A DNA stretch of 64,000 nucleotides, from contig JAJEHI010000048.1 in NCBI GenBank assembly GCA_022823775.1, positions 42,267-106,266 on the forward strand, given 5' to 3'. Position numbers and translations under genes: made by a program. The DNA is from Defluviicoccus sp. (lineage in GTDB: Bacteria > Pseudomonadota > Alphaproteobacteria > MPNO01). Below, one piece after another: positions 2,311-57,955 of this stretch (within the stretch, counting starts at the first letter, position 1; each line of letters opens with the position of its first letter). Under the pieces are notes generated by a model that was not told the DNA's origin, searched no databases, and saw nothing but the letters and a program-made list of their open reading frames with translations.

Positions 2311-4358
2311 GAGGATTTCTCCAGGATGAGGTTGCCGTAGCGGTCGACGGTCGACCGCCAGCTCTCCGGCACGACGGTCGTCGACCCGTATTCCTCCACG
2401 ATCGCCGGCCCGGTCACCGACGCGCCGACGCCGAGGTCGCGCCGGCGCCAGATGCCGCACTCTATCCAGCCGCCGTCGCGCCAGTAAACCCGGCGGGACG
2501 CGACGGGAGCGGCCCCTCCGCCGCCGGATTCGAGAGGTCGGATTCCCGGCCGGTGCACGCGCCCAACCGCCTGGACCCTGAGGCTCACCACCTCGACATC
2601 CTGGCGGCCCTCGTAATGGAAGCCGAAGGTGCTCTCGTGCACCCGGTGGAAGTCGCGCCACATGGTCGCTACCGCATCGCCGCCGACGGTGCCGGGCGGA
2701 ACCGGTACCGGTACCTCGTGACCCTCGCCCACATAGCGCATGTCGGCGCTGCGGAACAGGTCGATGGCCTCGCGCGCGACGCCCTCGGCCGCGATCTCGT
2801 TCCTGCCGGCATCCTCCAGCGCGGACCAGACGGCTTCGAGCTCGCCCGCGTCGTGCGACGACTGCTGGCGCACGCAGGTCCGGACGTAGTCGCGCTTGAC
2901 GTCGGACACGTGAAGCCCGAAGGCGGACAGGTTTCCCGGGTTGGGCGGCACCATGGCGGTGGCGATCCCGAGGAAATCGGCGACCTCGGCGGCGAACAGC
3001 CCGCCGGCGCCGCCGAAGGCGACCATCGCGTAATCGCCCGGATCGAGGCCGCGCGTGGTGGTGACCCGCCGGATGCCGTGTACCTGGTTGGCCGACGCGA
3101 TCTCCAGCACGCCGGCCGCGGCTTCCTCCGCCGGGATTTCGAGCTCGCGGCCGAGCTCCTCGTATGCGGCCCGGGCCGCGCCGGCATCGAGCTTCAGCCC
3201 GCCGCCGATCAGCGCCTCCGGCAGTCGCCCCAGCGCGAGCCCGGCATCGGTCACCGTCGGTTCGGTGCCGCCGCGGCCATAGCATATCGGCCCCGGATCG
3301 GCGCCGGCGCTCCGCGGTCCCACCTTCAGCGCCCCGTAGTCGTCGATCCAGGCGAGCGACCCGCCGCCGGTCCCCACCGTCTCGATATCCAGCATCGGCG
3401 ACTTGACGGGGTAGTTCTCGATCGTCGCGTGGCTCGTGAGCTGGGGCGTCAGGTTCTGGACCAGGGACACGTCGGTCGACGTGCCGCCGACGTCGAGGGT
3501 GAGCACGTTCCGGTAGTCGGCCAGCCGCGCCATGTGCGTCGCGCCGAGCACACCGCCGGCGGGGCCGGAAACCAGCATCGTCACCGGCTTCTCGGCCGCC
3601 TTGGCGCTGGTCACGATGCCGCCGTTCGACTGCATGATGAGGAACGGCACCGGGCCCGAACGCTCACGGATGCTGCGCTCCGCGTGGCCGAGATAGGTCT
3701 TGCAATAGGGCTTCACCATGACGTCGATCAGGGTCGTCATGGCGCGCTCGTATTCGCGGTATTCCGGAAGCACGACCGAGGAAAGCGAGACGTGGATCTC
3801 CGGGTGCCGTTCGGCCACCAGTTCGCCGACCCGGTTCTCGTGCGCCGGGTTGGCGTAGGAGTGGAGCAGGCAGACGGCGAGGCGGTTTACCCCGAGCGCG
3901 GCCAGCTCGTCCGCCGCGCGGACGACGCTGTCTTCCTCGAGCGGCGCCAGCTCCGAACCGTCGTGGCGTATGCGCCCAGTCACCTCGCGCACCAGATGCA
4001 GGGGCACGAGGCGTTTCGGCTTCACCCAGAAGAACGAGTTGCCGTAACCGTCCGGGACCGACTGGCGCGCGATCTCGATAAGGTGCCGGAAGCCGCTGGT
4101 GACAAGCAGTCCGAGGCCCTCGAACTTGTGCTCCAGCACGGCGTTGGTCGCCGTCGTCGTGCCGTGCAGGATCTGGCCGATTTCGGTCCGCGCGACACCT
4201 GCCGCGTCCAGCACCTCGTCGATGCCGTTCAGCAGCCCGAGGCTCGGATCGGCCGGCGTGCTCGGGGTCTTGATCGCGAACTGGTCGCCCGTTTCCTCGT
4301 CGAGCGCGATCACGTCCGTGAAGGTGCCGCCGGTGTCGATGGCTATGCGGAGCGACAT
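2307..4358 (-). CDS. hyuA: Hydantoinase A / N-methylhydantoinase A family protein (HyuA-like)
   Basis: The 683-aa ORF starts MSLRIAIDTGGTFTDVIALDEETG, the typical hydantoinase_A N-terminus, and has the GGTSTDVSL ATP-binding motif. It is translationally coupled to hyuB. Confidence 0.85.
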   Translation of the reverse strand: MSLRIAIDTGGTFTDVIALDEETGDQFAIKTPSTPADPSLGLLNGIDEVLDAAGVARTEIGQILHGTTTATNAVLEHKFEGLGLLVTSGFRHLIEIARQSVPDGYGNSFFWVKPKRLVPLHLVREVTGRIRHDGSELAPLEEDSVVRAADELAALGVNRLAVCLLHSYANPAHENRVGELVAERHPEIHVSLSSVVLPEYREYERAMTTLIDVMVKPYCKTYLGHAERSIRERSGPVPFLIMQSNGGIVTSAKAAEKPVTMLVSGPAGGVLGATHMARLADYRNVLTLDVGGTSTDVSLVQNLTPQLTSHATIENYPVKSPMLDIETVGTGGGSLAWIDDYGALKVGPRSAGADPGPICYGRGGTEPTVTDAGLALGRLPEALIGGGLKLDAGAARAAYEELGRELEIPAEEAAAGVLEIASANQVHGIRRVTTTRGLDPGDYAMVAFGGAGGLFAAEVADFLGIATAMVPPNPGNLSAFGLHVSDVKRDYVRTCVRQQSSHDAGELEAVWSALEDAGRNEIAAEGVAREAIDLFRSADMRYVGEGHEVPVPVPPGTVGGDAVATMWRDFHRVHESTFGFHYEGRQDVEVVSLRVQAVGRVHRPGIRPLESGGGGAAPVASRRVYWRDGGWIECGIWRRRDLGVGASVTGPAIVEEYGSTTVVPESWRSTVDRYGNLILEKSS

Positions 4359-22024: not shown

Positions 22025-23344
22025 CTAGCCCAGGCGCATCAGCGCCGGCAGCCAGGTCACCGCGCCCGGAACGAGCATCAGCACGATAAGCAGCGCGATC
22101 TCGAGCAAGATGAAGGGCGCGACGGCAAGGTAGATCTGCTGCATCGTGGTGTCCTTGGGCGCGACGCTCTTCATGACGAAGAGGAGCAGGCCGAAGGGCG
22201 GCGTCGTCTGGCCGATTTCGAGCGCCAGCAGCATCAGGACCCCGAACCAGATCAGGTCGAAACCCGCGAAATGCGCCAGCGGGACGAAGAAGGGCAGCGT
22301 GATCAACATGATGCTGAGCGGGTCCATGATGCAGCCCAGGATGAGAGTGATCGCCATCATCCCCGCGATCAGCACCAGCGGCGACGGCTCGACCAGACGC
22401 ATCAGACCGAGCAGTCCGGATGTCGCACCGGAAAATGCCAGGATCTGCGAAAACGTAAGGGACGCGGCGATGATGAACAGGACCATGACCGCGATCCGGC
22501 CGGTCTCCCGCACGGCGGTCAGGAACGACGCCCAGGTGAAGGAGCGATAGGCCATCGCCGCGATCACCGCGCCGATGGCGCCGCACGAGGCCGATTCCGT
22601 CGGCGTCGCGAAGCCGGCAAGAATGCTCCCGATCACCAGCAGGAACAGCCCGAACAGGGGAACTACGTAGATCAGAAAGGGCCTGACGCGCTCCCGAAAG
22701 CTCATTCGCGGCAGATCGTAGGCGGGCGCAAGCGAGGGATCGAACCGGCATCGCAGGATGACGTACGAAAAATGGGTGCACGCCATCAGGAAGCCCGGCA
22801 CCGCGCCGGCGATGAGAATTCCCGCGATCGAGATCTCCGCGAGGCTGCCCAGCAGAATCGCGAGCCCCGACGGCGGGATGAGCATCGCGATGCCGCCGGT
22901 GCCGAGGATGGGACCCATCGTCATCGACCAGTGATAGCCGCGCCGGCGCATTTCCGGCATCAGGGTGGAGCCCAGCATCGCCGTATTCGCCATCGTCGAG
23001 CCGGACAGCGCGGAAAACGTGGTCCCGCCGATCACCGCGACCAGACAAAGCCGGCCCGGCACCCGGGCGATCAGCCGGTCGATGGCGTCGATCGCGCGGA
23101 CCGCGACGCCGGAGTGGTAGAGGACCTCGCCCATCAACAGGAAGCACACGACCGGCGCGAGCGGGAACTTTCCCACCGCTTCGACCGTGTTCCGGACCCA
23201 CTGGATCAGGCCGGGCTCGCCGCCGAAAAAGATCGTCGCGCCGACGATATTGGCCCCGAAGAACGCGAACGCGACCGGAACGCCCATCAGCATCAGGGCG
23301 ATGGACAGGCCGACAAGGAGCAGCAGCGCCAGATACCATTCCAT
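22025..23344 (-). CDS. dctM: TRAP transporter large permease (DctM family)
   Basis: Real start MEWYLALLLLVGL at 23344; the track ORF 22025..23830 has a 162-aa read-through. It is a polytopic membrane protein with DctM-family motifs. Confidence 0.85.
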   Translation of the reverse strand: MEWYLALLLLVGLSIALMLMGVPVAFAFFGANIVGATIFFGGEPGLIQWVRNTVEAVGKFPLAPVVCFLLMGEVLYHSGVAVRAIDAIDRLIARVPGRLCLVAVIGGTTFSALSGSTMANTAMLGSTLMPEMRRRGYHWSMTMGPILGTGGIAMLIPPSGLAILLGSLAEISIAGILIAGAVPGFLMACTHFSYVILRCRFDPSLAPAYDLPRMSFRERVRPFLIYVVPLFGLFLLVIGSILAGFATPTESASCGAIGAVIAAMAYRSFTWASFLTAVRETGRIAVMVLFIIAASLTFSQILAFSGATSGLLGLMRLVEPSPLVLIAGMMAITLILGCIMDPLSIMLITLPFFVPLAHFAGFDLIWFGVLMLLALEIGQTTPPFGLLLFVMKSVAPKDTTMQQIYLAVAPFILLEIALLIVLMLVPGAVTWLPALMRLG

Positions 23345-23346
23345 CG

Positions 23347-23880
23347 CTACAGCCCCTCGCGGCGCGGATCGCCGCGGCGCATTTCGCCGTCTTCGCCCCG
23401 GACGACGTCGCGAAGCCGGCGTACGCACTCGATGCAGAGGAGCAGGGCGGCCACGGGCAGCACCGCGAGCAGCCACCATTCGCGGATTGTGAAGGTCTTG
23501 ACCAGGGCGTAGTTCTCGGCGCGCGAGAGGAGCGCCGCCCGGACGCCGTAGTAGAAAAAGATCGCACAGATGACGAGCAGCAGGATACCGGCGAGGATCG
23601 CGAGGTAACGCCTCGGACGCGGCGGCAGGACGCCCGGAACGATGTCCACCGTAACGTGCCGGCCCAGGCGAAGGACGTAGGCTGTCCCGACGAAAGTCAG
23701 CAGGAACAGGCCGTACTCGACGACCTCGATCATCCACTCGATGCTTCCGACGCCGATGTTGCGCAGCACGACATCGACGGCGATCCCGCAGACGACGAGC
23801 ACGACGATGACGCCGGGAATTTCGCCGCATGCGCGCAGCAGCCCGTCATGGGCGCGGCGGAGGTGATGCGTCATCGCCAA
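23347..23880 (-). CDS. dctQ: TRAP transporter small permease (DctQ family)
   Basis: 177 aa with four TM helices, immediately upstream of dctM. Confidence 0.75.
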   Translation of the reverse strand: MAMTHHLRRAHDGLLRACGEIPGVIVVLVVCGIAVDVVLRNIGVGSIEWMIEVVEYGLFLLTFVGTAYVLRLGRHVTVDIVPGVLPPRPRRYLAILAGILLLVICAIFFYYGVRAALLSRAENYALVKTFTIREWWLLAVLPVAALLLCIECVRRLRDVVRGEDGEMRRGDPRREGL

Positions 23881-23953
23881 ATCGATCCGGGCCGGCCCGC
23901 GGACGAGAACCGTCCTGCGCCCGGCCGGTGCCGGGCGCCGGAACGGAGGCGTG

Positions 23954-24958
23954 CTAGTCGGTCACCAGCGGCTTCAGCGTGCCGGTGAACTCGGGCCCCG
24001 TTTTCATCGCCGCGCCCCAGATCGCATCCTGGGACATCCTGGCCAGCCGGTCCGCCTCCGCCTTGGGCAGCTCGACAAGCTCAAGCCCGAGCTCGAGCAG
24101 CTTCGCGCCCATCTCGTCGTTCTTACGGAAGAAATCCTGGTTGACCTGACCCTCGATAAAGAGTCCCATCCCCTCCATGAAACTCCGTTGAGCGTCGTTC
24201 ATGCGCTTCCACGCGCCCAGATTGACAAGCACCATGACGGCCGGGTTGTAGACGCCCGGATCGACGCGGTATTTGACGACCTTGTAAAGCCGTGTGGGCA
24301 AGACGAAGTTGAACGGCAACACAAAACCTTCCACCACGCCCCGTTCGGTCGCGGTGTATATCTGGCCCAACCCCATCGACACGCCGTCGGCTCCTAGATC
24401 CTGAATCAGCTGGCGGGTCGCCGGCGAACGTCGGATCCTGAGACCCTTGAAATCGCCGAGCGTGCCAACCTTCTTCTTGAGGAAGAAGTGATGCGGCGCG
24501 CCCCATCCGAACTGCGCGAGGAAGTGTATGTTCGTCTTCTTGGCGAAAACCTCGCGCAGATATTTGTAGGCGCCCGCCTTGCGTTGTTCGGCGGGCGGAC
24601 GCGTCGTTGCGTTCAGAACTTCCGATCCCGGTATGAGATTGTTGCACCAGCTGACCGGAAACGCCGCGATCTGGACGATCCCGTTCTTGACCACGTTGCA
24701 CCATTGCTGGCGCGAAACCGTCTCCGGACCGACGACCTTGGGGATCTGCACGACCCCCTTGCCCTTCCGGTTCACCTCGTCGACGAACCGTTGCCAGCCC
24801 ACGCCGTAAAGCGACCGCTTCGCGGCCGTGAAGAATCCCGCGTTGAGGTCCATCGCGGCAGACGCTGCCACGCCGCCGGCCATTGGCGCCGATAGCGCCG
24901 CCAGTATCGCCGCGACGCCCAATTGCCTCGTAAGTCCGGTTCGTGACGCTTTGTGCAT
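23954..24958 (-). CDS. dctP: TRAP transporter substrate-binding protein (DctP family)
   Basis: Real start MHKASRTGLTRQLGVAAILAALSA (signal peptide) at 24958. The RBS GGGAGGAGA lies 8 nt upstream. Confidence 0.8.
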   Translation of the reverse strand: MHKASRTGLTRQLGVAAILAALSAPMAGGVAASAAMDLNAGFFTAAKRSLYGVGWQRFVDEVNRKGKGVVQIPKVVGPETVSRQQWCNVVKNGIVQIAAFPVSWCNNLIPGSEVLNATTRPPAEQRKAGAYKYLREVFAKKTNIHFLAQFGWGAPHHFFLKKKVGTLGDFKGLRIRRSPATRQLIQDLGADGVSMGLGQIYTATERGVVEGFVLPFNFVLPTRLYKVVKYRVDPGVYNPAVMVLVNLGAWKRMNDAQRSFMEGMGLFIEGQVNQDFFRKNDEMGAKLLELGLELVELPKAEADRLARMSQDAIWGAAMKTGPEFTGTLKPLVTD

Positions 24959-25016
24959 TTTCTCCTCCCTTTCTCTTGCGTTGCGTATTCCTTCGACCGG
25001 GATCCGGCGGACGCCT

Positions 25017-26402
25017 TCAAAAGGCGTTCGCCAGGACGCGATCGGCCGCCCGCGCGCCCGCCACACGCCCCGAGGCGAGCGCCCATCCGAGCGCATGGCC
25101 ATGACCGCCGAAATAATGAATCCAGCCCGCGCAGGCGCCGGCCGCGTAGAGGCCCGGGATGGGATCGCCGTCGACGGAGAGGACCCGCATCTCTTCGTCG
25201 ATCGCCAACCCCGCGCCGTCGATCATGAGGTAATTGCGCAGCGGGCCGAGGACGAAATAAGGCGGTTGCGCGAGGCTCGCGCCGCTGGCCCGGAGGTCCG
25301 TGGTCTTGCAGCCCACGAGCTCTGCTATGCCGTCGAGCGTGTCGGTCTCCGCGTACCACTCGAGTGCCTTGCAGTCCTCGAGATAGAAATATCCGACGGT
25401 GGGCGCCGTCGCGATATAGGGCTTGCCCGTCCGTTTCCAGCCGTCGCGGCCGGGGCCGACATCGTCGGCGGCGGAGGCCAGGCGAGCGGCGACCGCGGAG
25501 TCGAAGACGATGAAGATATCCTCCGGCTCCTCGACCTCGGCTTGCGGGGAAGGATGGGTGCGCCCCGAACGACCGATCCGGACCGCGCCCGCGGCGTAGA
25601 AATCCGCCGCGGGCTCCACATGGGGAGCATCGACGAAGCGGCATTGCGGCGCGGGCGGGCGCTGAGGCGGGTTCATTCGCGCACCGGCGCGCATCGCCAT
25701 TTTCTGAACTTCTCCCGAGGCGAAGCTGCGAAAGACCTCACCCTCCACCGCTGTGCCCGTTAGCGCCTCGATCAGCGCGAAATCCGCGGCGCTGTCGCCC
25801 GCGGCCAAGACCGCCGTCCCGGCGCGGATGTGCCGGCTCTCGCCGTTTCGCTCGCAGACGACTCCCGAAACCCGTCCGGCGTGATCGAGGATCAGATCCT
25901 TCGCCGGGCTTTCCCTTACGATCCTGACGCCCAGCTCGCGGCAGCCTTTTTCGAGCGCTGCGACGATGGCGCCGCCGTCCGGCACGACATTGTGCAGTCT
26001 CGGGGTTCGGTGCGGCTTTTCCGGGTGGGGCCCCCTGAACTCCACGCCGAGCGCCGTCAGCTGTTCGAAGGTTTCCGGAGACCGTTCGATCAGGAACCGG
26101 GCCTTCTCCTCCTCGAGCCGGGCGCCCGTCCTGTCGAAATAATCCCTCAGCTCCGCCAGATGATCTTCGTGGCGGTCGTCGATCCCGGCTTGCTTCTGAA
26201 ATTCGGTTTGGGAGGCGGTCAGGATGCCCATCGCCAGTGCGGTCTTGCCGCCGAGAGCCGCTTCGCGCTCGAACAGACCCACCTCGACCCCCTTCTCGGC
26301 GGCGACGAGGGCCGCCATGAGTCCCGCGCCGCCGCCGCCGATGACGACGGCATCCACGGCGTCGTCCCAGATCGTCCGCGAGAGATGCAACGGACCGCTC
26401 AT
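25017..26402 (-). CDS. FAD-dependent oxidoreductase (FAD_binding_2; fumarate-reductase/succinate-dehydrogenase flavoprotein-like, TcuA/KstD-like)
   Basis: Real start MSGPLHLSRTIW at 26402. The dinucleotide-binding motif is AVVIGGGGAGLMAALVAAEKG. It is the first gene of the dctPQM operon. Confidence 0.75.
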   Translation of the reverse strand: MSGPLHLSRTIWDDAVDAVVIGGGGAGLMAALVAAEKGVEVGLFEREAALGGKTALAMGILTASQTEFQKQAGIDDRHEDHLAELRDYFDRTGARLEEEKARFLIERSPETFEQLTALGVEFRGPHPEKPHRTPRLHNVVPDGGAIVAALEKGCRELGVRIVRESPAKDLILDHAGRVSGVVCERNGESRHIRAGTAVLAAGDSAADFALIEALTGTAVEGEVFRSFASGEVQKMAMRAGARMNPPQRPPAPQCRFVDAPHVEPAADFYAAGAVRIGRSGRTHPSPQAEVEEPEDIFIVFDSAVAARLASAADDVGPGRDGWKRTGKPYIATAPTVGYFYLEDCKALEWYAETDTLDGIAELVGCKTTDLRASGASLAQPPYFVLGPLRNYLMIDGAGLAIDEEMRVLSVDGDPIPGLYAAGACAGWIHYFGGHGHALGWALASGRVAGARAADRVLANAF

Positions 26403-26616
26403 TCCGGGACCTGTTTGCCCCGGCCGCCCTCGGCCAGCGCGCCCGGGATCGCGGCGGCGGTCTCGACCGAGCCGATGCCGGGCCGGCTCTCCCCCTCTGC
26501 TGCCATCCCGCCCCTCGACAGCTCCCCGTTGACTCATAAAATATAACCGATCATATTTACTATGACAAGAAATCGCCGTTGACCGATCTGTCCCCGCTTC
26601 CCCGACCGTCATGCCC

Positions 26617-26866
26617 GGAGTCGTGCCACTGCTGTCCGGTTTAATTCCCGTGGACCGAGTGCAAGGCTTGGGCACGCGCGGGTTATCGACCGCTCGGTCG
26701 GATCGATGCCCGGATCGCGCCACGCCGCGCCGCCCGTCGTCGTTGCCCGCTCTTGCCTCCCTCGTCATTTCGACCGGAGCGCGAAATGACGAGAGGGCGG
26801 AGACGGTCTTCCGTATCGGCGCGGAGCCCGGTCCGAAATTTAACCGGACAGCAGTGGCACGAGTCC
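26617..26866. repeat. MITE-like element: ~32-bp imperfect terminal inverted repeats flanking ~185 bp with an internal 14-bp perfect-arm palindrome
   Basis: Left inverted repeat GGAGTCGTGCCACTGCTGTCCGGTTTAATTCC (26617-26648). The reverse complement of the right repeat is GGACTCGTGCCACTGCTGTCCGGTTAAATTTC (26835-26866), with about 4 mismatches. The internal palindrome is CCCTCGTCATTTCG-accggagcg-CGAAATGACGAG(AG)GG. The region is non-coding, between two divergent TRAP operons. Confidence 0.45.
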
Positions 26867-27082
26867 GGCGTGACGATACCAGGGTAGGCGCCGCGTCGAC
26901 CGTGACGGGCGGTAGGAGAGATGCGCGTCCGCCGAGCCGGTCCGGGATCTTCCGGAAGGCCACCGTCGGTGCCGGCATCCTTGTTTCCGCGCGGGAACGG
27001 GTAGGCTACGATGTGCCGGTTGTTACGGCGTGTGCGTTGCGTATCCAGTCCCGGACGTAAATCGCAAAGCGAGGAATGAGAT

Positions 27083-28075
27083 ATGAGCATCGCCAAGACG
27101 CTACTCATGGTTGCCACGGGGCTCGTCTTCGCCACGGGCGTGGCGGCCCAGACGGTGATCAAGATCGGGCACGACCAGCCCGAGCACAGCACCCACCACC
27201 AGGCCGTGCTCAAGTGGAAGCAGGCCGTAGAAACGCGCAGCAAGGGCGCCTACAAGGTGGAGGCCTTCCCGGCCATGACGCTCGGTTCGGGCGTGCAGAT
27301 GGTCGAGCAGGTGCAGGCCGGAGCGATCCAGGCGGTCGCCGTTCCCTCGGCCTGGATCGCCCCCATCGTGCCGGACGTCCAGGTGCTCGACCTGCCCTTC
27401 CTGTTTCCCAGCCGCGAGGTGCTCTACAAGGTGGTCGACGGCCCGGTGGGCGTCGAAATCCTCAAGCCTCTCAACAAGGCCAATCTGCAGGGCATCGCCT
27501 TTTGGGAGAGCGGCTTCAAGCAGTTCACCGGCAATTTCCCGATCCGCCAGCCCAAGGACTACGAAGGCCACAAGATCCGCACCATGCCCGCACCGGTGAT
27601 CATGGAGCAGTTCAAGGCGTTCGGCGCCTCGCCGGTGGCGATCGATTTCAAGGAGCTCTACAACGCCCTGCAGCAGAAGGTGGTCGACGGCCAGGAGAAC
27701 CCGATCGCCACGATCGCGCTCATGCGGTTCTTCGAGGTCCAGAAATACCTGACGCTGAGCGACCACGGCTTCATCGCCTACATCTTCATGATGAACAAGG
27801 CGTTCCTCGACGGCCAGCCGGCCGACATGCGGGAGATCCTGGTCGACGAGGCGCGCGCCGCCGGGCGTTTCCAGCGCGATATCATCGCCAAGAGCGAGGC
27901 CGGCCACCTCGAGACCTTCCGCAAGGCGGGCGTCGAGATCATCGAGCTCTCGCCCGAGCAGCGGGCGATGTTCCAGAAGGCCTCGGGGCGGGTCTATGAC
28001 TGGTACGCCGAGAAGAAGGGCGTGGCGACCCTCAACCTGATCCGCGAGGCGGTCAAGTCCGTCACGATGAAATAG
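27083..28075 (+). CDS. dctP: TRAP transporter substrate-binding protein (DctP family)
   Basis: 330 aa with signal peptide MSIAKTLLMVATGLVFATGVAAQ. Confidence 0.85.
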   Translation: MSIAKTLLMVATGLVFATGVAAQTVIKIGHDQPEHSTHHQAVLKWKQAVETRSKGAYKVEAFPAMTLGSGVQMVEQVQAGAIQAVAVPSAWIAPIVPDVQVLDLPFLFPSREVLYKVVDGPVGVEILKPLNKANLQGIAFWESGFKQFTGNFPIRQPKDYEGHKIRTMPAPVIMEQFKAFGASPVAIDFKELYNALQQKVVDGQENPIATIALMRFFEVQKYLTLSDHGFIAYIFMMNKAFLDGQPADMREILVDEARAAGRFQRDIIAKSEAGHLETFRKAGVEIIELSPEQRAMFQKASGRVYDWYAEKKGVATLNLIREAVKSVTMK

Positions 28076-28113
28076 CCGGCGGCGGCTGGGCGGCGTCCCG
28101 CGACGGCGGTGCG

Positions 28114-28653
28114 GTGGAGCGGAGCGCCAGGGTGATCGGGTCGGTCTTAGCGCGGCTCGACCGGGCGCTCGGCCTCTGCGAAGCGGCCTTCGTCGCCCTG
28201 ACGATGGCGGCGGCGAGCATCCTCCTGTTCGTCAACGTCATCCTGCGCTACGTGTTCCTGTCGGCGCTGTCGTGGGCCGAAGAGGTCACGATGTATCTCA
28301 TCGTGTGGCTGGTCTTCGTCGGCGGCAGCGTCACGCTGCGGATGTTCGGCCACATTTCGATCGACCTGCTGCCGCTCGCTTTGCCGCCGGGCGGCCAGCG
28401 CCGGCTGAAGCTCGCCGTCTCGGCCGCGATGCTCGTCTTCTTCGCGGCCTTCTTCTATTACAGCGGGCAACACACCCTGCGGGTGATGGCGACGGGCCAG
28501 CTCACCCCGGTCCTCGAAGCGCCGATGTGGCTGACCTATCTTGCGATGCCGGTGGGCAGCCTGCTGATGGGCATCCGGACGGCCCAGATTCTCTACCGCA
28601 CGGCCTCGGCCGCGGGCGATGACACGTCGGGCACGACGACGCTCGCCGACTGA
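28114..28653 (+). CDS. dctQ: TRAP transporter small permease (DctQ family)
   Basis: 179 aa with four TM helices. Confidence 0.75.
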   Translation: MERSARVIGSVLARLDRALGLCEAAFVALTMAAASILLFVNVILRYVFLSALSWAEEVTMYLIVWLVFVGGSVTLRMFGHISIDLLPLALPPGGQRRLKLAVSAAMLVFFAAFFYYSGQHTLRVMATGQLTPVLEAPMWLTYLAMPVGSLLMGIRTAQILYRTASAAGDDTSGTTTLAD

Positions 28654-28689
28654 CGCCCCGAACCGGGCGCGTCCGCGCGGAGCCGCCGG

Positions 28690-29979
28690 ATGACGGCCGC
28701 GCTCGTCTTCGGGCTGCTCGCGCTCGGCCTGTTCCTCAGCGTACCGATGTTCATCGTGCTGACCGGCACGGCGTTCGTCGTCTTCGCGCTGACCACGCCG
28801 ATCCCGCTCTCCATCCTGCCGCAGCGCGTGTTCGCCGGGATCGAGAATTTTCCGCTGATGGCGATCCCGTTCTTCGTGCTGGCCGCCAACATCATGGGCA
28901 AGGGCGGGCTTTCGGCGCGGCTGGTGCGGTTCATCGAGTCGCTGGTCGGCCACCTGCCCGGCGGGCTCGGCGTGACGGTGGTGCTGACCTGCGTGCTGTT
29001 CGCCTCGATCACCGGTTCCAGCGCGTCCACCATCGTCGCCGTCGGCGGGATCCTGTACCCGGCGCTGGTGCAGGCGGGCTACTCGGAGCGCTTCTCGATC
29101 GGCGTGATCACCTGCTCGGCCCTGATCGGCATGATCATCCCGCCGAGCAACGCGATGATCGTGTTCGGCGCGGTCGCCGGGGTGTCGATCGGCGCCCTGT
29201 TCATGGCCGGGATCGGCGCGGGCGCGGTGTTCGCGCTGCTCTACGGGGTCTATTGCGTCGTCTGGTCCATCGCCAACCGGGTGGAGCGCCGCCCACGCGC
29301 GACGCTCGAAGAGCGCTGGCGGGCAACGCGCGAGGTGGCGTGGGGCATCGGCCTGCCGATCGTCATCGTCGGCGGCATCTATGGCGGCGTGTTCACGCCG
29401 ACCGAGGCGGCCGCGGTCTCGGTGGTCTACGCCGCCTTCGTCTGCGTGCTGGTGTACCGCGAGCTCGACCTGCGCGGGCTCATGCTGGTCTGTCTGGAAG
29501 CCGGGGTGATCAGCGCGCGCATCCTCATCATGGTGGGCGCGGCGAGCCTGCTGTCCTGGCTGTTCACCCTGTCCGGCATCACCCGCGACATCGTCGCGCC
29601 CTTCGCCGACCTCAAGGAGTCGCCGGGGATCGTGCTGCTGCTGGCGAACGGGCTCTTTCTGGTCTCCGGCATGTTCATCGACGTGTTCTCTAACATCCTG
29701 ATCCTGGTGCCGATCCTGCTCGGCACGGTGACCGCGGCCGGCATCAACGGCGTCCATTTCGGCATCGTCACCTCGGTCAATGTCGATATCGGCAACATCA
29801 CCCCGCCCTTCGGCTTCAACCTGTTCATCGCGAGCGGCACGTTCAACAAACCCTATCTAACCGTGCTGCGGGCGGTGCTGCCGTGGCTTGCCATCGCCTT
29901 GTTCTGCCTCGCCATCGTCACCTACGTGCCGGAGATCAGCCTCTGGCTGCCGAGGCAACTCTACCCGCAGATGTCCTGA
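28690..29979 (+). CDS. dctM: TRAP transporter large permease (DctM family)
   Basis: 429 aa polytopic membrane protein. Confidence 0.85.
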   Translation: MTAALVFGLLALGLFLSVPMFIVLTGTAFVVFALTTPIPLSILPQRVFAGIENFPLMAIPFFVLAANIMGKGGLSARLVRFIESLVGHLPGGLGVTVVLTCVLFASITGSSASTIVAVGGILYPALVQAGYSERFSIGVITCSALIGMIIPPSNAMIVFGAVAGVSIGALFMAGIGAGAVFALLYGVYCVVWSIANRVERRPRATLEERWRATREVAWGIGLPIVIVGGIYGGVFTPTEAAAVSVVYAAFVCVLVYRELDLRGLMLVCLEAGVISARILIMVGAASLLSWLFTLSGITRDIVAPFADLKESPGIVLLLANGLFLVSGMFIDVFSNILILVPILLGTVTAAGINGVHFGIVTSVNVDIGNITPPFGFNLFIASGTFNKPYLTVLRAVLPWLAIALFCLAIVTYVPEISLWLPRQLYPQMS

Positions 29980-56983: not shown

Positions 56984-57955
56984 ATGCAGAACGCCTTCAT
57001 ACCGGTCGCCGGACTCGTCCTGGGCGCCGCCTACGTGCTGCTTCTCGCGCCGCTGATTATCCGGGAAACGCGGCGGGCGCAGCAAATGGACAGGCGGTTG
57101 ACCGCGTTGCGCGATTCCCCGTTCGGCTACGCCGCCGGACACGCGGCCCGCGACGGCGGCCGGGGCAAGGCCCTGATCAGGGCGCTCGGCCTGACGGCCA
57201 TGCGTGTGGCGTCGATGCTGGTCCCGATCGGCGCGGCCGAGCGCGAGAAACTCACCCGCATGCTCCGCGCGGGCGGCTTCGGGCAGCACGAAGCGCTCTC
57301 CGTTTTCCTCTCCGCGAAGCTCGGCGGCGCGTTCCTCCTCGCCATCGGCGCCGGGCTCTGGGCGACCTCTTCGGAGACGGTCGGACAGCACGCGTTTCTC
57401 GCCCTGTTCGCCGCGCTGGCGGGCTTCGTGATCGGCGGTGTCATCCCGGAATACGTGCTGCGTGCGCTGGTGGCCCGAAGGCTGCAACGGATGACCGCGG
57501 TCCTGCCCGACGCGCTGGACATGCTGGTGATGTGCCTCGAATCCGGCCTGACGGCGGAACGGGGAATCCTGACGGTCGCCGACACGCTGGCGCCCATCGA
57601 GCCCAATCTCGCCAGGGAGTTCCAGCAGATCGAGGCGGAGCTGCGGGTCGCGTCGGACCGCCGCGCGGCGCTCACCGAGTATTACCGGCGCACGGAGATC
57701 GACGGTCTGCGCGACCTCGTGATGGCGCTCATACAGGGCGACCGGTACGGCACCCCGCTGTCCCAGTCGATGAAGAACATCGCGGCCGACGAACGGATGC
57801 AAAAGGCGGCGCGCATCGCGACCCAGGCCGAGCGCCTGCCGGTCCTGATGACCCTGCCGATGATCATTCTCGTGGTTCCCGGAACCATGCTCCTGGTGGC
57901 GGGCCCCGCCGTTCTGGGCGCGCTTACCGGGCTGGCAAAAATGAGTGGCGGATAG
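56984..57955 (+). CDS. tadC: TadC (T2SS-F-domain inner-membrane platform protein)
   Basis: Start MQNAFIPVAGLVLGAAYVLL; 323 aa with a T2SSF domain. Confidence 0.8.
   Translation: MQNAFIPVAGLVLGAAYVLLLAPLIIRETRRAQQMDRRLTALRDSPFGYAAGHAARDGGRGKALIRALGLTAMRVASMLVPIGAAEREKLTRMLRAGGFGQHEALSVFLSAKLGGAFLLAIGAGLWATSSETVGQHAFLALFAALAGFVIGGVIPEYVLRALVARRLQRMTAVLPDALDMLVMCLESGLTAERGILTVADTLAPIEPNLAREFQQIEAELRVASDRRAALTEYYRRTEIDGLRDLVMALIQGDRYGTPLSQSMKNIAADERMQKAARIATQAERLPVLMTLPMIILVVPGTMLLVAGPAVLGALTGLAKMSGG

Follow-up and report, generated by a model that had tools for sequence, protein, structure and literature searches.

A MITE-type derivative of an ISRel1-like IS4-family insertion sequence probably forms the palindrome between two divergent TRAP operons

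Why does the spacer between two divergent TRAP operons in a Defluviicoccus genome hold an odd palindrome of some 270 bp? This spacer lies in the 64-kb stretch of DNA that was analysed as a whole, hereafter called the window. A sequence-only reading had already described the divergent arrangement, which stands, as does the length of 680 bp (26403-27082). The spacer is not wholly non-coding, because it includes a remnant of an iclR gene (Table 1). By tblastn, this remnant matches the N-terminal part of IclR from two relatives (L081 and L082) at 21 of 28 residues. In both relatives, a 274-aa IclR protein is encoded upstream of the orthologous FAD-oxidoreductase gene. The remnant is called as a 35-aa gene in assemblies L001, L079, and L103.

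The terminal inverted repeats of about 32 bp proposed earlier are real, with coordinates shifted by 2 nt. A repeat search places the arms at 26615-26646 and 26837-26868, where 30 of 32 positions (94%) are complementary and 190 nt separate the two 32-nt arms. When one 1-nt indel is allowed, the arms can be extended outward to 26607 and 26875, or to about 40 nt each. Both share a perfect 21-nt core of the TCGTCCACTG type (TCGTGCCACTGCTGTCCGGTT). Given the base composition of the window, about 1.7e-6 repeats with at least 30 of 32 matches within 2.5 kb are expected by chance, and this is the sole strong inverted repeat in the window. Moreover, with up to three mismatches allowed, the 19-mer core occurs in the window only in these two arms (0.01 expected). 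The inner palindrome noted previously is also present, either as 12 perfect base pairs (26761-26772 and 26782-26793) with a 9-nt loop, or as 14-16 bp with a 2-nt bulge. Including its REP-like flanks, the entire tract (26607-26877) is 271 bp long.

Table 1. Features of the spacer and its borders, in window coordinates.
Feature	Position	Strand	Remarks
FAD_binding_2 oxidoreductase gene, then dctP-dctQ-dctM	start 26402	-	
iclR remnant, 35 codons	26399..26506	-	overlaps FAD-oxidoreductase start by 4 nt
Back-to-back promoter-like sites and AT-rich near-palindrome (putative IclR operator)	26529..26575	.	outside the element
Left outer stem CGTCATGCCCGG	26607..26618	+	REP-like host hairpin half, outside the putative mobile element
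Left flanking 7-mer AGTCGTG	26619..26625	+	position of 7-bp target duplication or REP loop
Putative MITE proper, 232 bp, CCAC to GTGG	26626..26857	.	no transposase
Left terminal inverted repeat, CCACTGCTGTCCGGTT core, then TAATT as subterminal sequence	26626..26646	+	end profile E=5e-6
Inner palindrome CTCGTCATTTCG / loop ACCGGAGCG / CGAAATGACGAG	26761..26793	.	probably what is left of a longer nested palindrome
Right terminal inverted repeat, AATTT plus AACCGGACAGCAGTGG (plus strand)	26837..26857	-	end profile E=2.6e-6; 14-mer core exact
Right flanking 7-mer CACGAGT	26858..26864	+	0/7 direct and 6/7 inverted matches to left 7-mer
Right outer stem CCGGCGTGACG	26865..26875	+	REP-like host hairpin half
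dctP, then dctQ and dctM	start 27083	+	

Comparison of the arms with other genomes points to their parentage. The terminal sequence CCACTGCTGTCCGG is found exactly, and in inverted orientation, at 26626-26639 and 26844-26857, and this 14-mer is identical to the ends of ISRel1-type insertion sequences (ISs) of the IS4 family. Among 185,579 species genomes the 19-mer core is present at 59 loci, whereas by our estimate chance would yield about 4 exact 19-mer matches over both strands of these 596 Gbp. In Rhizobium and Pannonibacter, many of the loci lie 60-130 nt from the end of a contig, which is the signature of a multicopy IS. Full-length ISs of this group, whose hosts include Rhizobium, Pannonibacter, and other bacteria, measure about 1.27-1.33 kb between the shared termini and carry an IS4-family transposase inside (NCBIfam transpos_IS4_1 at 247.6 bits; Pfam DDE_Tnp_1 and DUF4372). 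The transposase of one such copy, L061, is 96% identical in protein sequence to the one annotated for ISRel1. At the nucleotide level, L061 and the 271-bp tract agree at 77% over the initial 60 nt of the tract, where its REP-like flank, left terminus, and subterminal stretch align with the transposase-proximal IS end and the flank of that end. The left terminus runs on for about 25 nt that resemble this IS end (GTGGACCGAGTGCA). A profile built on 89 distinct IS and MITE ends yields exactly two matches in the window, the two arms (E around 1e-6). The 14-mer is invariant or nearly so across these ends, and the terminus is retained even between transposases that share only about 34% identity. We infer that the 14-16-bp termini, CCACTGCTGTCCGG(TT), serve as the binding and cleavage site of the transposase. 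Full-text literature searches returned no paper for the terminal sequence or for MITE, IS4, and Rhizobium in combination, and for ISRel1 only ISRel10 and ISRel26, which belong to another family.

The element itself has no apparent coding capacity. Open reading frames across it lack a Pfam hit, a tblastn search for the cognate transposase found nothing in the element or in the rest of the 64-kb window, and no similarity to a decayed transposase gene was detected in the interior. Because no transposase gene is present, the segment at 26626-26857 is best described as a derivative of an IS and not as an IS, and it should move only if a DDE transposase of the group (DDE_Tnp_1 plus DUF4372) is supplied in trans.

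Are other derivatives of this kind known? Transposase-less pairs of the same termini, spanning 220-290 bp, were found at seven places in six representative genomes. Two of these copies reside in one Xanthobacteraceae MAG (L028 and L048) and are 95.6% identical. Metagenomes yielded 17 transposase-less loci (L083-L099), 15 of them distinct. These relatives, such as that on plasmid c of R. etli IE4771 (L109, 813-1081), match the window element in termini, size class, and REP-loop context, but their interiors are unrelated to its own and alignment is confined to the ~40-nt ends. Together, the IS4-type termini and the existence of transposase-less relatives suggest that the element in the window is non-autonomous and of the MITE type. 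Neither the rest of the window nor 124 kb of related loci, this locus excepted, contains a second copy of the termini, and the nested-palindrome arm and degenerate IS ends were likewise sought elsewhere in the window and not found. Scans of genome and metagenome collections that lack the host genome, and that required exact arms (plus three flanking bases for the genomes), recovered no element with a similar interior.

The arms are longer than the shared IS4-type termini, and their outer portions have another source. The outer ~19 bp of each arm are REP-like host hairpin sequence (CGTCAT, a stem, and a 7-nt loop) that does not belong to the element. A CGTCAT motif with a GC-rich stem, as in the left outer stem, borders most related IS and MITE copies, and also stands alone as native REP hairpins and doublets on Rhizobium and Pannonibacter plasmids. 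The right outer stem is complementary to the left one with one indel and one mismatch, and its ...ATGACG class of outer half is likewise found in related copies. Thus, where the sequence-only reading offered either a MITE or a REP-like repeat, both components are found, with IS4-family termini as the inner 14-16 bp and REP-like sequence as the outer ~19 bp.

Comparisons among Rhizobium genomes indicate that the loop of the CGTCAT-stem-loop REP hairpin is the preferred target of this IS group. Specifically, an empty-site comparison reveals that the ISRel1 copy L061 takes the place of the inter-loop segment of a REP doublet. In the kdpD-kdpC spacer of R. etli IE4771, a single REP doublet has a MITE in one loop and an IS in the other, and both are bounded by their own 7-bp duplications. 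R. sophoriradicis reads GCTTGAC-CCAGG-GCTTGAC at the orthologous site, possibly an excision footprint, and the occupied site (L109) and the site with the possible footprint (L110) constitute a presence/absence polymorphism for this class of element. Plasmids offered no empty site for the I-type IS copy L063, and no REP hairpins of the target class beyond chance were found elsewhere in the 64-kb window.

Given its REP-like flanks, could the entire structure be a REP or REPIN moved by a RAYT (Y1/HUH) transposase, with the IS4-like motif coincidental or secondary? A CGTCAT-stem motif does open both the nested inner palindrome and the outer 19 bp of each arm, and the Rhizobium counterparts of these hairpins are arranged as inverted doublets. 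Nevertheless, conservation within the arms peaks at the 14-mer that they have in common with IS4-family IS ends and that hardly varies among the 89 distinct ends, the 64-kb window has no other REP of this class, and relatives carry 7-bp target duplications that Y1 transposition does not make. We therefore regard this explanation as very unlikely.

The element edges were taken from full-length relatives in which perfect 7-bp direct repeats abut CCAC...GTGG (L011 twice, L060, L014, and L062); in all, such repeats lie directly outside these edges in five full ISs and seven MITEs. The target-site duplication that the sequence-only reading proposed to look for was not found in direct form at the window copy. 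Instead, the flanking 7-mers are inverted, and in sister assembly L103 the left 7-mer is ACTCGTG, which is complementary to the right one at all seven positions. Among the transposase-less relatives, about one third likewise carry flanking 7-mers that are inverted and not direct. Given that relatives with perfect duplications exist, the window copy must be considered atypical or rearranged.

All four sister assemblies carry the element at this locus. Three of them (L079, L103, and L104) have 88 extra bp at the inner palindrome, with 20-nt arms CTCGTCATYTCGACCGGAGC and GCTCCGGTCGAAATGACGAG. The deletion junction in the window allele lies at 26781/26782, between ACCGGAGCG and CGAAATGAC, and its endpoints share CGAA. 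Because the sister allele is 88 bp longer, the inner palindrome is read as the stub of a centrally deleted nested palindrome. Point changes are also evident among sister strains, including an uncompensated G-to-A change in the right terminus.

These assemblies also bear on the idea that the inverted repeats, which enclose a ~190-bp segment between divergent operons, permit a site-specific recombinase to flip a promoter. The segment has the same orientation in the window scaffold and in two independent full-length sister assemblies (L079 and L103). Furthermore, none of the eight flanking ORFs examined encodes a recombinase (their products are TRAP components, an oxidoreductase, or proteins without a Pfam hit), the segment lacks a promoter-like site, and the repeats are transposon termini. 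An invertible switch is thus improbable in the extreme.

Considering the termini, the flanks, and the relatives jointly, we conclude that the inverted repeat is very probably a non-autonomous MITE-type derivative of an ISRel1-type IS4-family IS, lodged in a REP-like host hairpin. One competing history retains the same parentage. A full-length ISRel1-type IS might have inserted here and then lost its interior in place, or a deletion might have joined two elements that sat in neighboring REP loops, such that the product never transposed in its short form. The genome and metagenome scans found no second copy with the same interior, the 25 subterminal nucleotides on the left still resemble the transposase-proximal IS end, and a further central deletion has already been seen at the window copy. 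In addition, a deletion between two elements of a REP doublet is expected to leave inverted 7-mers and CGTCAT...GTGACG outer halves, and an intermediate with two elements exists in R. etli IE4771. Against this stand the lack of a detectable transposase gene remnant in the interior, and the abundance of elements in this size class whose interiors are unrelated, at least some of them multicopy or mobile. We consider such a one-off decay product possible, with the weight of evidence leaning against it.

Under the favored MITE-type origin, the element would move by a cut-and-paste process that creates a 7-bp target duplication, with a preference for the loops of CGTCAT-stem-loop REP hairpins. The window copy would have arrived by such an insertion into a REP, either a doublet or a symmetric one. 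Its direct duplication may then have been lost, either because a deletion joined elements seated in both loops of the doublet or through palindrome correction, and the 40-bp composite arms would be the product of this loss. The 88-bp central deletion at the CGAA microhomology would have followed, as is typical of long palindromes. A more speculative route is that ISRel1-type IS4 transposases integrate loop-to-loop into REP doublets in one concerted step, with loss of the inter-loop segment. Each transposon end would be joined in one hairpin loop, replacing the standard 7-bp staggered insertion. This would account for the inverted 7-mers in about one third of related elements, the window copy among them, and for their CGTCAT...ATGACG outer halves. 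If true, it would represent an undescribed mode of target capture for a DDE transposase, one that turns REP doublets into perfect palindrome arms of 35-40 bp. We consider this mode unlikely, and the data fit it, the two-step route (double occupancy of a doublet as in R. etli IE4771, then deletion), and palindrome correction alike.

Does the element serve its neighbors? A promoter scan identified two back-to-back promoter-like sites in the spacer, TTGTCA-17-TATATT on the minus strand (26568 to 26540) and TTGACT-17-CATATT on the plus strand (26529 to 26557). The block that contains them is conserved upstream of iclR in L081 and L082, and lies about 40 bp (38 nt) from the left edge of the element, which itself is 207 bp upstream of dctP. 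Within the element, the scan found no promoter-like or terminator-like sites. Separately, TGGCAC in the arms was considered as a sigma-54 promoter and rejected by eye, since the GG/GC spacing is wrong.

A functional structure might nonetheless take the form of a long hairpin in a dctP 5′ leader that is transcribed from the plus-strand promoter-like site at 26529-26557, or of a DNA cruciform or protein-bound palindrome through which the two divergent operons are insulated or coupled. The position between the operons is suggestive, as is the conserved rightward promoter-like site that points into the element. The inverted-repeat region is also predicted to fold very stably, at -162.5 kcal/mol (z = -8.2) on one strand and -163.3 kcal/mol (z = -8.9) on the other, but transposon and REP inverted repeats yield such stability trivially. 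When the spacer was compared with the covariance models of Rfam 15, no family was matched, and the best scores came from eukaryotic miRNA models at 14-25 bits, versus gathering thresholds of 67-95. Relatives lack the element upstream of their orthologous operons, and sister strains differ by both the 88-bp indel and the uncompensated arm change. A regulatory structure is accordingly quite unlikely. The proposal that the repeat affects the expression of both operons finds no support, as the promoter and operator block lies outside an element that varies among sister strains, and we see no sign of a regulatory role.

The surroundings differ among more distant relatives. The assemblies with the closest FAD-oxidoreductase (99%) all carry the element, and those in which this protein is 76-80% identical have no element, with iclR and a cupin operon instead. 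Orthologues of DctP (87-90% identical in protein and 86% in nucleotide sequence) differ in upstream synteny, with homology beginning only at 27032-27066. No empty-site allele was found among the sister assemblies or the DctP and FAD-oxidoreductase relatives: the first group of oxidoreductase relatives carries the element, the second has different neighbors, and the DctP orthologues are uninformative because of their altered synteny. A blastn search of the 680-bp spacer against plasmids gave no match. Most likely, the element is now an inert relic, placed between the conserved promoter and operator block and dctP, where two gene blocks meet in a lineage-specific junction.

As such, it is an ordinary kind of mobile-DNA relic of modest practical value. 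Recognizing the palindrome as mobile-DNA debris spares it from false annotation as a small RNA or an operator, and the element marks a lineage-specific junction beside an operon that has lost its IclR regulator. More broadly, the ISRel1-type branch of the IS4 family has given rise to many unrelated MITEs that share one common 14-bp terminus. The frequent seating of this branch in REP loops should aid annotation in Alphaproteobacteria, and helps to explain contig breaks and palindrome instability in metagenome assemblies.

Among known systems, the nearest is ISRel1 itself (Rhizobium etli CFN42 plasmid p42a), together with its isoforms on Rhizobium plasmids. Like the window element, these begin with the 14-bp terminus followed by TTTAA-type subterminal sequence, and have REP-like flanks. 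They differ in length (about 1275 bp versus 232 bp), in their unrelated interior, in their DDE_Tnp_1/DUF4372 transposase gene, of which the window element has neither the gene nor a remnant, and in the 7-bp direct duplication typical of the group.

Bacterial MITEs are short (under about 600 bp), non-coding, non-autonomous IS derivatives with terminal inverted repeats that match those of an IS, and they are intergenic with strong predicted hairpins. The window element shares its shortness, lack of coding sequence, IS-like termini, intergenic site, and predicted hairpin with these elements (PMC3184786). Bacterial MITEs are usually multicopy with a target duplication, whereas this one is known from a single copy in 64 kb and has no direct duplication. 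Several of its transposase-less relatives do keep perfect 7-bp duplications, and one is polymorphic for presence or absence.

REP doublets, BIMEs, and REPINs (PMC3116915; PMC3333891) are resembled by the outer arms and the nested inner palindrome, which look like REP hairpin halves. In contrast to the high copy number of REPs and REPINs, no such family is visible in the 64 kb, and the conserved arm core here is an IS4 terminus.

Finally, ISRm22, an IS4-family element of Sinorhizobium meliloti 1021, has all of its copies at the symmetry axis of REP palindromes, often within REP clusters (Tobes and Pareja, 2006; PMC1525189). This element is autonomous and has 6-bp direct repeats, unlike the window element. 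No similarity between the termini was detected: no Sinorhizobium record matches the 42-nt end consensus, and Sinorhizobium relatives of the transposase are annotated as ISRm16 at about 38% identity. Kinship at the level of subgroups is at most possible. Perfect direct repeats are missing from some ISRm22 copies, and the authors explain this by recombination among them (PMC1525189). ISRm22 provides a published precedent for IS4-family insertion at the symmetry axis of a REP.

The sequence-only reading had placed a MITE-like element in a 680-bp spacer between two divergent TRAP operons. Our analysis bears out both the spacer and the claimed terminal inverted repeats, whose coordinates shift by 2 nt. 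An inverted-repeat search of the window finds arms of 32 nt that are complementary at 30 positions, are separated by 190 nt and contain a perfect 21-nt core common to both; pairing reaches outward to positions 26607 and 26875 if one indel is allowed. Only about 1.7e-6 such repeats are expected from base composition. No other strong inverted repeat is present in the 64-kb window, and the core 19-mer, even with up to three mismatches allowed, has no further occurrence there beyond the two arms. Apart from this pair, the search reported a single long inverted repeat, a weak one (35-nt arms, 71% complementary, 386 nt apart), which is probably due to chance or related to coding sequence. The inner palindrome described in the same reading is present as well, with 12 bp of perfect pairing. 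The window is a scaffold assembled from a metagenome (KELL22-1), and the locus has a 99%-identical counterpart in a sister assembly, GCA_022820985.1 (L079). Within 8 kb (22025-29979), the two strands each carry one complete TRAP transporter gene set.

Coordinates and strands of the element, its flanks and the neighboring genes in the window
Feature	Coordinates	Strand	Remarks
FAD_binding_2 oxidoreductase gene, then dctP-dctQ-dctM and TPP enzyme		minus	one side of spacer
dctP	23954-25102	minus	
Long DctM-containing ORF	22025-23830	minus	
iclR remnant	26399-26506	minus	35 codons; ORF fused in front of the FAD-oxidoreductase gene, whose start it overlaps
Spacer	26403-27082		between the two TRAP operons
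AT-rich block	26529-26575		element edge 38 nt away; block shared with L081 and L082, where it precedes iclR
Left outer half			CGTCATGCCCGG+AGTCGTG; host sequence
Left arm	26615-26646		
Mobile unit	26626-26857		232 bp, CCAC...GTGG
Inner palindrome	26761-26772 / 26782-26793		
Right arm	26837-26868		
Right outer half			CACGAGT+CCGGCGTGACG; host sequence
dctP-dctQ-dctM	27083-29979	plus	opposite side of spacer
Weak inverted repeat	57113-57147 / 57534-57568		

The arms carry the termini of a known insertion sequence (IS) group. An exact scan of both strands of one genome per species (185,579 species, 596 Gbp) for the 19-mer GTGCCACTGCTGTCCGGTT yields 59 loci, compared with about 4 estimated by chance; this count covers exact arm matches that include three flank bases, in collections to which the host genome does not belong. 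Rhizobium, Pannonibacter and uncultured Alphaproteobacteria account for most of these loci. In many cases a contig end is 60-130 nt away, which is the signature of a multicopy, assembly-breaking repeat. When aligned on the core, the loci have CGTCATCCTCGGCCTTGTG-CCACTGCTGTCCGGTT-TAAATT in common and then diverge into two types of continuation, one for each end of an IS. Full copies (L002, L003, L014 and L061 through L063) have about 1.27-1.37 kb between cores and encode a protein of 381-415 amino acids with DDE_Tnp_1 and DUF4372 domains, which falls in the NCBIfam class transpos_IS4_1 (247.6 bits versus a cut-off of 115). Specifically, the L061 transposase is 96% identical to a protein of Rhizobium etli CFN42 plasmid p42a annotated "IS4-like element ISRel1 family". 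A profile of 89 distinct ends matches the window at exactly two sites, which are the two arms (E = 5e-6 and 3e-6). The left arm resembles the transposase-proximal IS end for about 25 nt further, and over its first 60 nt, which include the flank, the tract 26607-26877 is 77% identical to the transposase-proximal end and flank of L061. Elsewhere, an uncultured alphaproteobacterial MAG (L002, 557-4536) carries a nest of two full IS copies and one defective copy; at 3221-3255 just 7 bp (GACAAGC) separate the ends of two elements, an arrangement that would result if the duplication of one element had served as the insertion site of the next.

The same termini also bracket short segments of 220-290 bp that lack a transposase, in R. 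palustris (L027), R. etli (L062/L109) and several MAGs (L017, L044 and L046), and one Xanthobacteraceae MAG has two short copies that are 95.6% identical (L028/L048). A gapped-pattern search adds 17 JGI metagenome loci, which reduce to 15 distinct ones once the identical pairs L088/L091 and L089/L094 are merged. Except for a few families, the interiors of these short elements are mutually unrelated, and that of the window element is unlike all of them, with alignment confined to the ends of about 40 nt. Thus, the ISRel1-type terminus has seeded many independent MITE-like elements, of which the window element is one with an interior so far unique among these exact arm matches.

Perfect 7-bp direct repeats lie directly outside CCAC...GTGG in five full-length ISs and in seven of the short elements. 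Some of these copies are in non-REP contexts, for example the acidobacterial L011 (Bryobacterales MAG; GGCGGTG and TCTGAAG) and L060 (Telmatobacter bradus; CACATGC), which retain the same 14-nt termini even though transposase identity to the alphaproteobacterial copies is only about 34%. Therefore, the mobile unit runs from CCAC to GTGG and generates a 7-bp duplication, and the outermost 19 bp on either arm belong to the host rather than to the element. Many plasmids of Rhizobium and Pannonibacter carry the motif CGTCATCCTCGG-CCTTGTG-CCGAGGATC, singly or as inverted doublets, and in the D-type copies L044, L048, L028, L062, L087 and L088, removal of the element and one 7-mer restores such a REP-like hairpin.

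Two Rhizobium loci bear on the mobility of this element class. In the kdpD-kdpC spacer of R. etli IE4771 plasmid c (L109, 790-2440), both loops of a REP doublet are occupied, one by a 269-bp MITE (duplication GCTTGAC) and the second, 63 bp away, by a full ISRel1-like IS (duplication GTCAAGC). The orthologous site in R. sophoriradicis (L110, 440-480) reads cgtcatgctcgg-GCTTGAC-CCAGG-GCTTGAC-ccgagcatcc, and so holds both duplication copies and the CCA..GG of the element's ends. From its sequence this site looks like the footprint of cut-and-paste excision of the MITE, with a 12-bp tandem duplication carrying one mismatch as the alternative.

A target-site duplication was sought at the window copy, where no direct one is present; instead, the flanking 7-mers AGTCGTG and CACGAGT are inverted and agree at 6 of 7 positions (7 of 7 in sister assembly L103), and each outer half belongs to the CGTCAT type. 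This inverted pattern recurs in about a third of the related ISs and MITEs. One of them, the ISRel1 copy L061, has empty alleles in related Rhizobium plasmids (L106/L107), where the site is a REP doublet, CGTCATGCTCGG-CCTTGCG-CCGAGCATCC-(28 nt)-GGGTCCTCGG-GTCAAGC-CCGCGGACGACGG. In the occupied allele the inter-loop segment of about 48 bp is missing, and of the doublet only the two outer halves and their loops remain. By analogy, the window element may sit loop-to-loop in a former REP doublet or symmetric REP. This could arise by deletion between two elements lodged in both loops, for which the IE4771 arrangement would be the intermediate, by recombination between copies, as has been proposed for ISRm22 (PMC1525189), or by palindrome correction through template switching or concerted two-loop integration. 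Inverted 7-mers also occur within a single REP (L063), and therefore more than one route may operate.

The sister assemblies L079 (3432-3800), L103 and L104 have 88 additional bp at 26781/26782. There, the arms of the inner palindrome are 20 nt long (CTCGTCATYTCGACCGGAGC / GCTCCGGTCGAAATGACGAG) and enclose a further imperfect hairpin. The window allele keeps the left-arm extension ACCGGAGCG as a "loop" that lacks its right partner, and CGAA is common to both deletion endpoints; it therefore looks like a central deletion of a long palindrome at this microhomology. A possible alternative is that the short allele is an assembly artefact, for which it speaks that two short-read contigs (L104 and L105) end exactly at the palindrome center. 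In L103, the right terminus has a G-to-A change with no compensating change in the other arm, consistent with neutral decay.

The element lies where two syntenic blocks meet. In two relatives (L081 and L082; FAD-oxidoreductase 76-80% identical), a 274-aa IclR gene is directly upstream of the oxidoreductase gene, and upstream of this block is a divergent cupin/glyoxalase/Rieske operon. The window has only the first 28 codons, matching the N-terminus of this IclR; the regulator gene has been almost wholly deleted in this lineage while the promoter/operator block is kept. That AT-rich block contains overlapping, back-to-back sigma-70-like promoter matches (TTGTCA-17-TATATT leftward, TTGACT-17-CATATT rightward) and the near-palindrome AAATATGATCGGTTATATTT, and is probably the IclR operator with divergent promoters. 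On the other side, orthologous dctPQM-TPR blocks (86% nucleotide identity; L065-L078 compared) are preceded by a fatty-acid hydroxylase gene or by other genes, and homology to the window extends no further than 17-50 nt upstream of the dctP ATG. The window lacks both the cupin operon and the hydroxylase. Judged from these differing neighbors, the element thus occupies a lineage-specific junction (26576-27066).

The rightward promoter-like site now faces the MITE rather than the cupin operon, and an RNA running from it into the element is predicted to form a very stable hairpin. Nothing found points to a role for such a transcript: the Rfam search gave no match, no promoter-like or terminator-like site was found inside the element, and the element is not conserved in relatives.

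Together, these data support the initial MITE or REP-like-repeat reading, in the form of an IS4/ISRel1-derived, non-autonomous MITE-type element in a REP-like target. The feature is small, has no coding capacity, and has terminal inverted repeats that match the termini of an autonomous IS; of the usual MITE hallmarks, the direct target duplication is absent from this copy. The element is of a known kind, and the inverted flanks in REP doublets are the sole part that might repay further work. In Sinorhizobium meliloti, every copy of the IS4-family ISRm22 lies at the symmetry axis of REP palindromes (PMC1525189), which agrees with the REP-like host flanks seen here.
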